This document shows positions 3,027 through 6,265 of a stretch of 12,968 bases of DNA, one piece after another. A program made the position numbers and the translations under genes. This DNA comes from Escherichia coli (GTDB lineage: Bacteria; Pseudomonadota; Gammaproteobacteria; Enterobacterales; Enterobacteriaceae). The notes under the pieces were generated by a model. It saw nothing but the letters and a program-made list of their open reading frames with translations. It had not been told where the DNA came from and made no database searches. Where the stretch lies: NCBI RefSeq assembly GCF_003334355.1, contig NZ_QOWP01000052.1; one strand, written 5' to 3'. The number at the start of each line of letters is the position of its first letter. Within the stretch, counting starts at the first letter, position 1.

Positions 3027-4454
3027 ATGTCGATCAAAACCAGTAATACAGATTTTAAGACACGCATCCGTCAGCAAATTGAAGATCCGATCATGCGCAA
3101 AGCGGTGGCAAACGCGCAGCAGCGTATTGGGGCAAATCGGCAAAAAATGGTCGATGAATTGGGGCACTGGGAGGAGTGGCGCGATCGGGCCGCCCAGATA
3201 CGTGATCATGTTCTGAGTAATCTCGACGCTTATCTGTACCAGCTCTCAGAAAAAGTGACGCAAAACGGCGGTCACGTCTATTTTGCAAGAACCAAAGAAG
3301 ACGCTACCCGCTACATTTTACAGGTTGCCCAACGCAAAAATGCCCGGAAGGTGGTGAAATCTAAATCGATGGTGACCGAAGAGATTGGTGTCAATCATGT
3401 GTTGCAGGATGCTGGCATTCAGGTGATTGAAACCGATCTGGGTGAATATATTCTCCAGCTGGATCAAGATCCGCCATCTCATGTTGTGGTCCCGGCAATT
3501 CATAAAGATCGCCATCAGATCCGTCGAGTGCTACACGAACGTCTGGGCTATGAGGGGCCGGAAACGCCTGAAGCGATGACCTTATTCATCCGGCAAAAAA
3601 TCCGCGAAGATTTCCTCAGTGCTGAAATAGGTATTACCGGCTGTAATTTCGCGGTGGCAGAGACCGGTTCGGTATGCCTGGTGACCAATGAAGGTAATGC
3701 GCGAATGTGTACCACGCTGCCTAAAACGCATATTGCAGTGATGGGAATGGAGCGTATTGCCCCCACGTTTGCCGAGGTAGATGTATTGATCACCATGCTG
3801 GCGCGCAGTGCCGTTGGTGCACGTTTGACGGGATACAACACCTGGCTGACAGGACCGCGCGAAGCTGGGCACGTTGATGGTCCTGAAGAGTTTCATCTGG
3901 TTATTGTCGATAACGGGCGTTCTGAGGTGCTGGCCTCTGAATTTCGGGATGTGCTGCGCTGTATTCGCTGCGGGGCTTGTATGAATACTTGTCCGGCATA
4001 TCGCCATATTGGCGGTCATGGATATGGCTCTATTTATCCAGGGCCAATTGGTGCGGTGATTTCTCCGCTACTTGGCGGCTATAAAGATTTTAAAGATTTA
4101 CCCTACGCCTGCTCTTTATGCACAGCTTGTGACAACGTGTGTCCGGTGCGTATTCCGCTGTCAAAACTGATTTTGCGTCATCGTCGGGTGATGGCTGAAA
4201 AAGGGATCACCGCAAAAGCAGAGCAACGGGCGATAAAAATGTTCGCTTATGCCAATAGTCATCCAGGATTGTGGAAAGTCGGGATGATGGCCGGTGCTCA
4301 TGCGGCAAGCTGGTTTATCAATGGCGGCAAAACACCACTCAAATTTGGCGCGATTAGCGACTGGATGGAAGCACGCGATCTTCCTGAAGCTGACGGAGAG
4401 AGTTTCCGTAGTTGGTTTAAGAAACATCAGGCGCAGGAGAAAAAGAATGGATAA
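3027..4454 (+). CDS. ykgF: LutB-like iron-sulfur protein with two 4Fe-4S ferredoxin motifs, YkgF
   Basis: 475-aa ORF beginning 10 bp after the ykgE stop. It contains two ferredoxin-type clusters, CIRCGACMNTCP and CSLCTACDNVCP. Confidence 0.9.
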   Translation: MSIKTSNTDFKTRIRQQIEDPIMRKAVANAQQRIGANRQKMVDELGHWEEWRDRAAQIRDHVLSNLDAYLYQLSEKVTQNGGHVYFARTKEDATRYILQVAQRKNARKVVKSKSMVTEEIGVNHVLQDAGIQVIETDLGEYILQLDQDPPSHVVVPAIHKDRHQIRRVLHERLGYEGPETPEAMTLFIRQKIREDFLSAEIGITGCNFAVAETGSVCLVTNEGNARMCTTLPKTHIAVMGMERIAPTFAEVDVLITMLARSAVGARLTGYNTWLTGPREAGHVDGPEEFHLVIVDNGRSEVLASEFRDVLRCIRCGACMNTCPAYRHIGGHGYGSIYPGPIGAVISPLLGGYKDFKDLPYACSLCTACDNVCPVRIPLSKLILRHRRVMAEKGITAKAEQRAIKMFAYANSHPGLWKVGMMAGAHAASWFINGGKTPLKFGAISDWMEARDLPEADGESFRSWFKKHQAQEKKNG

Positions 4455-5142
4455 TCGAGGCGAATTTTTGAATAACGTTGCTCAGGCACTGGGTCGCCCG
4501 CTGCGACTTGAACCGCAAGCAGAAGATGCGCCGCTTAACAACTATGCTAACGAGCGGCTTACCCAACTTAACCAACAGCAGCGCTGTGACGCGTTTATTC
4601 AGTTTGCCAGCGATGTTATGTTGACGCGCTGTGAGCTGACCAGCGAGGCGAAGGCGGCAGAAGCTGCAATACGTCTGTGTAAAGAGCTGGGAGATCAGTC
4701 GGTCGTGATTAGCGGTGACACGAGGCTGGAGGAATTGGGGATTAGCGAACGTTTGCAGCAGGAATGCAATGCCGTTGTTTGGGATCCGGCGAAAGGTGCC
4801 GAGAATATCTCGCAGGCAGAGCAGGCTAAAGTGGGTGTTGTGTATGCTGAATATGGTTTAACCGAATCGGGAGGCGTGGTTCTTTTTTCCGCCGCCGAGC
4901 GCGGGCGTTCATTGAGCCTGCTCCCGGAATATTCTCTTTTTATCCTGCGTAAAAGCACTATCCTGCCGCGTGTAGCGCAACTCGCAGAAAAATTGCATCA
5001 GAAAGCGCAGGCCGGTGAACGAATGCCTTCCTGCATTAACATCATTAGCGGCCCCAGTTCAACGGCGGATATTGAGCTTATCAAAGTCGTCGGAGTTCAT
5101 GGCCCGGTGAAAGCGGTGTATCTGATTATTGAGGATTGTTGA
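4447..5142 (+). CDS. ykgG: LutC-like protein YkgG (third subunit of the LutABC-type complex)
   Basis: The ATG at 4447 lies inside the sequence AAGAATGGATAA, overlapping the ykgF stop by 8 nt, which indicates translational coupling. The product begins MDNRGEFLNNVAQALGRP... and is 231 aa. The longer track ORF from 4294 is an in-frame upstream extension inside ykgF. Confidence 0.85.
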   Translation: MDNRGEFLNNVAQALGRPLRLEPQAEDAPLNNYANERLTQLNQQQRCDAFIQFASDVMLTRCELTSEAKAAEAAIRLCKELGDQSVVISGDTRLEELGISERLQQECNAVVWDPAKGAENISQAEQAKVGVVYAEYGLTESGGVVLFSAAERGRSLSLLPEYSLFILRKSTILPRVAQLAEKLHQKAQAGERMPSCINIISGPSSTADIELIKVVGVHGPVKAVYLIIEDC

Positions 5143-5248
5143 GAGAGATATGAAGTCTGGACATAAACCTGAAGAAGGCATACGAGGTTGAAAATAGCGT
5201 TTAGGACAACCTGACTTAACCCCGTTCCGTCATGGTTATGCTGCTCTT

Positions 5249-5289
5249 CTGTAAATATCCTGGTATTACCAATGCCAGGATATTTACAG
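5249..5289. repeat. Perfect 15-bp inverted repeat (CTGTAAATATCCTGG / CCAGGATATTTACAG) with an 11-nt loop, in the convergent ykgG-ykgH intergenic region
   Basis: Read directly from the sequence: left arm 5249-5263, right arm 5275-5289. It could act as a bidirectional terminator or a protein-binding palindrome, but no U-tract follows on either strand. Confidence 0.6.
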
Positions 5290-5384
5290 TGAAAAAGACA
5301 GGCATCCATTCCTGAAAACGGGTTCCCTTCCCGGTCATTGTCACTTCAGCTTTATACAGGCACTCTCTATCAAAATGTTGTTTA

Positions 5385-6053
5385 TTACTGCCCAGAGTTT
5401 TGTTGGTATTCATCTACCATTTTTTTGACAAGGCAAAACATTACAGAAATTACAATGCTTAGAAAAAATCCCAGAGCCAGGCAAATGGCAGCAGGGTATT
5501 TATTTTTTATTTCTGGTGAGCTTATAGTTACACAGCCATCACCGTTCGGATACAATGACCAGTTCCTGGTCAGGTATATCATTTTTGTATAAAGCTCACT
5601 GTTAATTGCTGAAGGCGTTTGTATCTCATCGAGAACTTGCCTGCCATTATGATATTCTGACGCATACCATTTGATAATAGAGGCCTGCACGCGAGATATT
5701 TCCTCTTCAGCAGTTGGTAAAGCTCTCTTATCTCCTGACCATTCCAGCCTTATTTCTCTGTTCTTGACATCTGGGCTGGTGTGAAAAAATGTAGTAATTC
5801 GCTGAATAACATCTTCAGTCATTGTAGTCTGACAGGCAAAATTATTATTGCTATCACAGCTAACAAGTATACCTGGCGTTGTCTGGTTTATTTTTAGGCT
5901 GTAAATCACTTTTATATTGTCTTTATTGATATACAGAAACAACAGCACCATAGCCATACATATAGCCATAATAAAAAGGATAACACGAATCTTTTTCTTC
6001 AGATAAAATAAAATCTCAATCAGATCGATATCCTGTTTGATTTGTTCACGCAT
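5385..6053 (-). CDS. ykgH: Predicted inner-membrane protein YkgH
   Basis: 222-aa ORF with a single strongly hydrophobic N-proximal segment (ILFIMAICMAMVLLFLYI) followed by a hydrophilic domain. It is convergent with ykgG and matches the K-12 gene order. Confidence 0.75.
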   Translation of the reverse strand: MREQIKQDIDLIEILFYLKKKIRVILFIMAICMAMVLLFLYINKDNIKVIYSLKINQTTPGILVSCDSNNNFACQTTMTEDVIQRITTFFHTSPDVKNREIRLEWSGDKRALPTAEEEISRVQASIIKWYASEYHNGRQVLDEIQTPSAINSELYTKMIYLTRNWSLYPNGDGCVTISSPEIKNKYPAAICLALGFFLSIVISVMFCLVKKMVDEYQQNSGQ

Positions 6054-6265
6054 AATATATCCAGAGAATAAAATCTGTCGCAGATAAGGTTGTATTAATA
6101 GTCTGTATCAGGAATGTTCGGGTTAAATATCAGCAAAAAGCCCGCATCATGAATACTGGATATGAAGCATGAGAGTTACCTCAGTGTTTATATAAGGATT
6201 CGGTCCCCCTCTCTGGAACGGTAACTCTCAATCTGATCGGTTCCTGCGTTAGTTCACATCACGAC

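Follow-up and report, generated by a model that had tools for sequence, protein, structure and literature searches.

The stretch of E. coli DNA analysed here (the window; 12,968 nucleotides) carries rclR, ykgEFG, ykgH, betABI and betT in that order, and a window coordinate equals the corresponding coordinate of E. coli MG1655 (NC_000913.3) minus 319311. The final gene of ykgEFG, ykgG, encodes a LutC family protein on the plus strand (4447..5142) and is convergent with ykgH, which encodes a protein of 222 aa on the minus strand (5385..6053); the two genes are separated by a spacer of 242 bp. Within this spacer, between the 3' ends of the convergent ykgEFG and ykgH units, lies a palindrome at 5249-5289 (MG1655 324560-324600). 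No ykgS, ykgU or ykgV is annotated in MG1655 322500-325000, and ykgU and ykgV map elsewhere.

The ykgH gene is an AT-rich orphan. All of the YkgH homologues found were of the Escherichia type, and no Pfam domain is on record for the protein. The GC content of the segment 5150-6250 is 32-42%, against 50-60% in its flanks, and the promoter spacer between ykgH and betA has been flagged as H-NS-associated by genomic SELEX. Taken together, the Escherichia-only homologues, the low GC content and the H-NS flag suggest that the ykgH segment is an acquired island. A search of genome contigs with YkgH returned only two tiny contigs, both from actinobacterial assemblies and both 100% identical over the matched stretch: a 256-bp contig of Nocardioides malaquae Y6 (L009; 79 aa matched) and a 272-bp contig of Amycolatopsis orientalis KCTC 9412 (L010; 15 aa matched), the spacer part of the latter being 98.6% identical to the window. 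These two contigs are almost certainly E. coli contamination. In two further sequences (L015 and L016, from Logan SRR27475577 and SRR27475578), every difference from E. coli is a G-to-A change on a single strand, in a GG or GA context, and the CCTGG Dcm site of the hairpin arm has kept its G's in both. The changes look like enzymatic or chemical deamination of cytosine in the library rather than natural divergence; the "81% identical YkgH" protein that they yield (P0015) is therefore an artefact. Within E. coli, ykgH has been disrupted repeatedly, by IS1 with a deletion (H30/L001), by an IS3-type insertion (L013) and by an internal stop codon (L020), and truncated or partial gene calls are found in L018 and L019. 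The deletion that accompanies IS1 in H30/L001 runs from approximately 5241 and adjoins the palindrome. In the lineages L027-L033, an autotransporter gene takes the place of betA upstream of ykgH.

A preliminary description of this DNA had reported a perfect 15-bp inverted repeat at 5249-5289, and this was borne out: CTGTAAATATCCTGG (5249-5263) and CCAGGATATTTACAG (5275-5289) are exact reverse complements. The repeat is in fact longer, with 19-nt arms at 5249-5267 and 5271-5289 around a 3-nt loop at 5268-5270. Complementarity is complete over the outer 15 nt of the arms, and the one mismatch in the arms appears as a U:G wobble in plus-strand RNA and as an A-C mismatch in minus-strand RNA. Six of the 19 stem pairs are G-C, and each arm includes a CCWGG Dcm site. 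RNA folding, which had been proposed as a check, predicted a stable hairpin on both strands, at -27.4 kcal/mol (z -7.2) for the plus strand and -24.3 kcal/mol (z -4.95) for the minus strand. No perfect hairpin stem in the window is longer than these 15 bp; when the window was shuffled 100 times with its dinucleotides preserved, the longest perfect stem measured 7-11 bp, and the palindrome is far beyond chance.

The symmetry is not confined to this core. There is partial complementarity between the flanks at 5216-5248 and 5290-5325, whose pairing exceeds that of shuffled flanks (z -2.1 and -2.6, equalled by 10/300 and 4/300 shuffles); therefore, the element as a whole is an imperfect palindrome of about 110 nt (5216..5325) with a near-perfect core. 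An outer repeat had also been described earlier, of which CCCGTT at 5221-5226 was correctly placed; its partner AACGGG, however, lies at 5317-5322 and not at 5316-5321, and a 6-mer match is by itself at chance level. The predicted folds have the flanks lengthening the palindrome helix in read-through RNA of either strand. The minus-strand read-through RNA, at 124 nt, folds at -46.8 kcal/mol (z -5.8), with a U5 tract (described below) paired with GAAGAG downstream of the hairpin. With a core of 15-19 bp and the flank pairing added, the predicted double-stranded RNA reaches the approximately 20 bp or more expected of a lambda sib-like RNase III site.

The position of the palindrome between convergent genes raises the question of transcription termination. 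The preliminary description held that the repeat, being AT-rich and without a U-tract, is not a canonical intrinsic terminator, and our results agree: the stem is low in G-C pairs, the A/T runs lie on the wrong sides and a terminator scan was negative. No T-run follows the palindrome stem on either strand, as the plus strand continues with TGAAAAAGAC (UGAAAAAGAC) and the minus strand with AAGAGCAGCA, and no terminator was returned by a scan of 4900-5700. The run of five A's at 5292-5296 lies 3' of the palindrome on the plus strand, that is, as a U5 tract 5' of it on the minus strand. An intrinsic terminator was ruled out, the stem not being GC-rich, the U-tract being absent and no published Term-seq 3' end lying about 7-9 nt past the stem. 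Likewise ruled out was a bidirectional terminator of the usual design, with an A-tract 5' and a U-tract 3' of the stem, as the A5/U5 arrangement at the palindrome is the reverse.

Published Term-seq data place the end of the ykgH transcript elsewhere. A strong "orphan" 3' end was mapped at MG1655 324603 on the minus strand in all three conditions, with 43,492 and 126,276 among its scores (Adams et al. 2021, eLife, PMC7815308, Supplementary file 1). The sequence context printed in that study comprises 61 nt, from -50 to +10, which was confirmed against two other entries and the coordinate offset; the end corresponds to window position 5292, the final U of the U5 tract, 3 nt upstream of the palindrome on the minus strand, and the ykgH-strand RNA ends in ...CAGGAAUGGAUGCCUGUCUUUUU-3'. 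It is preceded by a small, weak intrinsic terminator (5292..5314, minus strand), in which CAGG (5314-5311) pairs with CCUG (5302-5299) and is followed by UCUUUUU, such that the end at 5292 comes 7 nt after the hairpin, which is the geometry of an intrinsic terminator. This hairpin has a folding energy of -4.0 kcal/mol in K-12; in B2-type strains, a G-to-U change gives a perfect 6-bp stem with a UGGA loop and -6.0 kcal/mol. The CAGG/CCUG stems and the U5 tract are invariant across all haplotypes examined, the divergent L030 lineage included. Furthermore, a metagenome contig (L014) with a distant ykgH-like gene (54% identity over 36% of YkgH) has a similar CAGGA..UCCUG hairpin and U6 downstream of the gene, but is without the large palindrome. 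The mapped end, the terminator geometry, the invariance and the hairpin of L014 therefore identify the small CAGG/CCUG element, and not the palindrome, as the ykgH terminator. At the 3' base of the palindrome itself, no 3' end was called on either strand in the same Term-seq data, which cover LB at OD 0.4, LB at OD 2.0 and M63: there was no minus-strand end at 32455x or 32456x and no plus-strand end at 32460x, the sole end being 324603 upstream of the hairpin. In these three conditions, the palindrome does not appear to be a site of 3'-end formation.

The RNA that ends at 5292 has a history of its own. The ykgH 3' UTR ("ykgH.EST3UTR"; 5292..5384, minus strand) was proposed from RIL-seq, with a target motif, as a putative Hfq-dependent 3'-UTR-derived sRNA (Melamed et al. 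2016), and it was later re-scored, with a U-run feature of 5 (Bar et al. 2021). In northern blots with two probes (corresponding to 5311-5340 and 5303-5326) the RNA was undetected, though RNA-seq reads accumulate there (Bar et al. 2021). The Term-seq end defines this RNA, and the palindrome lies outside of it. The 3' UTR poses a puzzle, as an end that is strong in all three conditions stands against a terminator of -4 kcal/mol and negative northern blots. Bicyclomycin sensitivity in the region hints that Rho helps the weak ykgH terminator to give a discrete end.

The involvement of Rho is documented on both strands. A bicyclomycin-sensitive, and thus Rho-dependent, region is listed at 324578 on the minus strand, inside the hairpin, with a Rho score of 3.5 (Adams et al. 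2021, PMC7815308, Supplementary file 2); the reads upstream and downstream number 160 and 16 in untreated cells and 572 and 199 with bicyclomycin (Adams et al. 2021, PMC7815308). On the plus strand, a Rho termination region at 5602 (MG1655 324913; Rho score 6.7; Adams et al. 2021) marks read-through from ykgEFG, antisense to ykgH, about 310 nt beyond the palindrome. It should be noted that these coordinates derive from 800-nt windows, and are coarse positions rather than mapped ends. Since bicyclomycin-sensitive read-through occurs on both strands, read-through RNA that contains the hairpin does exist, and Rho limits read-through across the palindrome on both strands. Rho-dependent termination downstream of the hairpin, a characteristic of protective 3' stem-loops, was found in both directions (324913 on the plus strand and 324578 on the minus strand). 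The minus-strand signal over ykgH rises about 3.6-fold with bicyclomycin (from 160 to 572 reads); this rise and the Rho-stopped antisense transcription are consistent with silencing of the AT-rich ykgH by Rho and H-NS.

The distribution of the palindrome was examined in genomes, phages and metagenomes. The 242-bp spacer is found at a single place in 5,144 of 5,426 complete E. coli genomes, with a median of one per genome. A 59-nt query centred on the hairpin hits two places per genome because the palindrome matches itself on both strands. Searches of phages and of viral contigs gave no matches, and the plasmid matches listed are E. coli K-12 or laboratory F'-type records of approximately 214-242 kb (e.g., XL1-Blue) that carry the chromosomal segment. 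In metagenomes, a scan with a degenerate pattern recovered copies of the E. coli spacer together with unrelated hairpins, many of them ordinary terminators with an A-run and a T-run; the metagenome matches outside of E. coli have only the searched bases in common with the palindrome. The suggestion in the preliminary description that the palindrome is a remnant of a small repeat element thus finds no family to belong to, with one copy per E. coli genome and none in phages or viral contigs, and on the same grounds a dispersed palindromic repeat or MITE family was ruled out. A known RNA family was also ruled out, no Rfam match coming near a gathering score: in Rfam 15, only spurious plant and animal miRNA models matched at the palindrome, at 16-20 bits against gathering scores of 98-160. 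The palindrome is single-copy and restricted to Escherichia. The same metagenome scan brought up a separate hairpin, TAAATATCCTGTGGCAAATTAGACCACAGGATATTTA, which recurs between conserved A/T-rich flanks in over 25 environmental contigs (L041, L042, L050, L052, L058, L064 and about 20 more). This hairpin has the look of a conserved element of the bidirectional-terminator type, belonging to some phage or organism that is abundant, and has no relation to the locus in E. coli.

Variation in the palindrome was followed across 18 E. coli haplotypes and the divergent Escherichia lineage represented by L030 and L031. Among the 18 haplotypes, 6 of the 41 palindrome positions are variable (5263, 5264, 5269, 5270, 5287 and 5289), compared to 39 of 242 in the whole spacer; thus, the palindrome shows no excess conservation. 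With seven haplotypes the outer arms were invariant and appeared specially conserved; however, this was gone with 18. Positions 5269 and 5270 in the loop vary freely, and a T/C difference at 5264 toggles between a U:G and a C-G pair. Uncompensated changes affect stem pair 15 (5263 G>A, in B2), stem pair 3 (5287 C>A) and stem pair 1 (5289 G>T/A), and changes of this kind are limited to stem pairs 1, 3, 15 and 16, at the base or the tip of the stem. At least 14 contiguous base pairs are kept in all 18 haplotypes and in L030/L031.

In L030/L031, the spacer is 84.7% identical to the window, ykgEFG is partly deleted or rearranged, and an autotransporter gene lies upstream of ykgH; ykgH, the small terminator and the palindrome are all retained. 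Two changes in this lineage, 5261 T>A and 5277 A>T, together make a compensatory swap of a T-A for an A-T pair, the sole change in the middle of the stem. In a covariation test, 94.7% of cells were paired and one pair had changed on both sides; 71 of 500 shuffles matched this, so the covarying pair is not significant by itself. By our own estimate, the chance of two of three changes striking partner positions with complementary bases is approximately 0.02. When a quasi-palindrome is replicated, one of its arms tends to be corrected to match the other, and the swap fits either selection for pairing or such templated correction from arm to arm. According to the preliminary description, 3' ends elsewhere and the lack of other copies would make the palindrome a local coincidence. 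Both were found; nevertheless, the shuffle statistics, the extended symmetry and the one compensatory change oppose chance, and the palindrome is therefore not a coincidence.

We tentatively favor, at somewhat less than an even chance, a reading in which the palindrome forms a stable stem-loop in RNA and has its effect on read-through transcripts alone. In its support are a beyond-chance structure that is stable on both strands, the complementary flanks, the position directly after the mapped ykgH end, the bicyclomycin-sensitive read-through on both strands and the pairing kept in all haplotypes, with the compensatory swap of L030/L031; against it stand the absence of a called 3' end at the hairpin base in three Term-seq conditions, the lack of excess conservation and the three uncompensated stem positions, and the covarying pair could equally come from palindrome-templated mutation without selection. 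Nearly as likely, though likewise below an even chance, is that the palindrome is a neutral relic of a one-time inverted duplication or template switch in the AT-rich, apparently acquired ykgH segment, persisting without function and with its symmetry partly upheld by arm-to-arm correction. Such an origin accords with a single-copy element that is, like the orphan ykgH, limited to Escherichia and set in low-GC DNA (32-42% vs 50-60% over 5150-6250), with a hairpin that varies as much as the spacer and bears uncompensated stem changes in several lineages, with mapped 3' ends that lie elsewhere, with the frequent disruption of ykgH (H30, L013, L018, L019 and L020) and with the ykgH-like locus of L014, where the small terminator occurs and the palindrome does not. 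However, the 19-bp stem has been kept throughout the diversification of E. coli, no lineage having more than two disruptions and these at the stem ends only, and the swap in L030/L031 would be improbable (the estimate of about 0.02 given above) unless templated correction operates. A terminator of unconventional design, with the hairpin halting RNA polymerase from both sides, is largely refuted and at most a very slim prospect. The symmetric hairpin between convergent genes and the minus-strand bicyclomycin-sensitive drop at 324578, within the hairpin, would suit it; but no U-tract follows the stem on either strand, the sole T/A run precedes the hairpin on the minus strand, and 324578 was derived from 800-nt windows rather than from a mapped end. 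The bidirectional terminator variant entertained in the preliminary description likewise finds no support in the Term-seq data, where the end at 5292 lies 3 nt upstream at a separate terminator and precedes transcription of the hairpin, with no plus-strand end called.

The palindrome could also act as DNA, as a site for a dimeric or tetrameric protein bound to both arms that serves as a roadblock or an architectural site between the convergent units; we regard this as unlikely. The perfect symmetry on duplex DNA speaks for such a site, as do the H-NS association of the ykgH-betA promoter spacer and a genomic-SELEX peak of the RNA polymerase-sigmaE holoenzyme in the convergent spacer (W3110 323832, by estimate approximately window 5297; intensity 5.6; Shimada et al. 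2017). However, the resolution of SELEX is about 100 bp, arms of 15-19 bp with an 11-bp gap between the perfect parts are atypical of the operators known in E. coli, no established motif was recognised, and in the B2 haplotype the symmetry is lost at 5263, where the partner position has not changed in step. The RpoE peak falls in a convergent spacer, where promoters are unexpected; a sigmaE promoter is a doubtful source for it, the match found being a weak one (GGAACGG-N16-CCTAA, minus strand, 5228-5201) whose -10 element is unconserved across haplotypes. Very improbable, too, is that the palindrome lies inside an unannotated small open reading frame and is constrained by coding. Two candidates were considered, a plus-strand frame of 25-27 aa that begins at 5232 or 5238 and ends at 5315, M(VM)LLFCKYPGITNARIFTVKKTGIHS (MVMLLFCKYPGITNARIFTVKKTGIHS), and a minus-strand frame from 5305 to 5216 for a hydrophobic peptide of 29 aa, MPVFFTVNILALVIPGYLQKSSITMTERG, with an AGGA Shine-Dalgarno sequence. 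Of the ten sites that vary within 5232-5312, six share a codon phase, the plus-strand frame has 7 synonymous vs 7 non-synonymous events, and the 3-nt deletion in L030 is in frame; however, these statistics are borderline (p ~0.05-0.08 by our own estimate, before correction for multiple frames). The plus-strand frame, moreover, is without a Shine-Dalgarno sequence and loses the ATG at 5232 in L030, the minus-strand start is changed to ATT in B2 strains and its frame is truncated by the mapped end at 5292, no gene is annotated beneath the match in 30 of the 30 RefSeq records listed, and the accessible part of the table of Stringer et al. gave no ribosome-profiling support. Longer minus-strand frames of 65 and 70 aa across the hairpin were rejected: two haplotypes have a 2-bp indel at 5180-5181, within the 70-aa frame (5309 to 5097), and both this frame and the 29-aa candidate nested in it are cut by the Term-seq end at 5292. 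The probability left after these five readings belongs to explanations that were not considered.

The favored reading, that of a stem-loop acting on read-through RNA, would begin from published events. Transcription of ykgH stops 3 nt before the palindrome at the weak CAGG..CCUG and U5 terminator, which yields the Hfq-associated 3' UTR RNA, and read-through on both strands is curtailed by Rho. The palindrome itself would act at the RNA level, and only for polymerases that escape the terminator or Rho. In read-through RNA of either strand, a very stable 19-bp stem is predicted to form, prolonged by the flank pairing and, in the minus-strand RNA, with the U5 tract sequestered. The folded structure might mark or cap transcripts that read through, whether by blocking 3'-to-5' exonucleases or by offering RNase III a double-stranded substrate, and either action would limit the antisense RNA that enters the opposite gene, ykgG or ykgH. 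A more specific version, which we consider rather unlikely, makes the palindrome and its flanks a retroregulatory switch specific to read-through transcripts, a two-way insulator resembling lambda sib, but set in a bacterial chromosome. In such a switch, a stop at the weak ykgH terminator would give a stable, Hfq-bound 3'-UTR RNA, whereas read-through would fold the U5 tract and the terminator into the long helix, to be cleaved (e.g., by RNase III) and degraded; the symmetry would impose the same fate on read-through from ykgEFG.

If the hairpin does act on read-through RNA, the locus would offer a clean, single-locus and strand-symmetric RNA insulator between convergent genes, and the hairpin would help to account for the strong and discrete end of an sRNA candidate whose terminator is very weak (-4 kcal/mol, U5). 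If it is a relic, the locus cautions against taking any striking palindrome between convergent genes for the place where transcripts end. Either way, the corrected map has the ykgH terminator at 5292-5314, the palindrome downstream of it and Rho acting on both strands. Altogether, the palindrome is a genuine but ordinary-looking structural element without demonstrated function.

Among known elements, REP/BIME, ERIC/IRU, BoxC and MITEs resemble the palindrome as imperfect palindromes in 3' intergenic regions; however, the element described here is single-copy, has no sequence similarity to them and no Rfam match, and is best conserved at its centre rather than at its termini. Lambda sib/tI retroregulation relies on sequence beyond a terminator that becomes part of a long helix only when transcription reads through. 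The ykgH terminator followed by a long helix in read-through RNA is a similar arrangement, in which a role for RNase III would be assumed by analogy; in contrast to sib/tI, the ykgH terminator hairpin lies beside the large stem and not inside of it. The stem-loops that define the 3' ends left by processing of transcripts terminated by Rho (Dar & Sorek 2018, NAR; PMC6061677) share with the palindrome a stable hairpin without a U-tract and Rho termination downstream, but the palindrome is without a called 3' end at its base in the three Term-seq conditions, and its stem is unusually long, AT-rich and strand-symmetric. Bidirectional intrinsic terminators of convergent E. coli genes, as mapped by SEnd-seq (Ju et al. 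2019, cited by Adams et al. 2021), likewise use one shared hairpin; these have a 5' A-tract, a 3' U-tract and a GC-rich stem, whereas the A5/T5 run here is on the opposite side and comes from the smaller hairpin. Hfq-dependent sRNAs derived from 3' UTRs (e.g., CpxQ, and the candidates of Melamed 2016) are comparable to the RNA that ends 3 nt upstream of the palindrome; unlike RNAs of the CpxQ type, however, the ykgH candidate ends in no more than a U5 tail behind a weak stem and is northern-negative, and the palindrome is outside the RNA. As a candidate for the class of Rho-transcript stem-loops or for that of lambda sib, the palindrome would work most like the U-tract-less stem-loops of Rho-terminated transcripts or like a read-through structure of the lambda-sib type.
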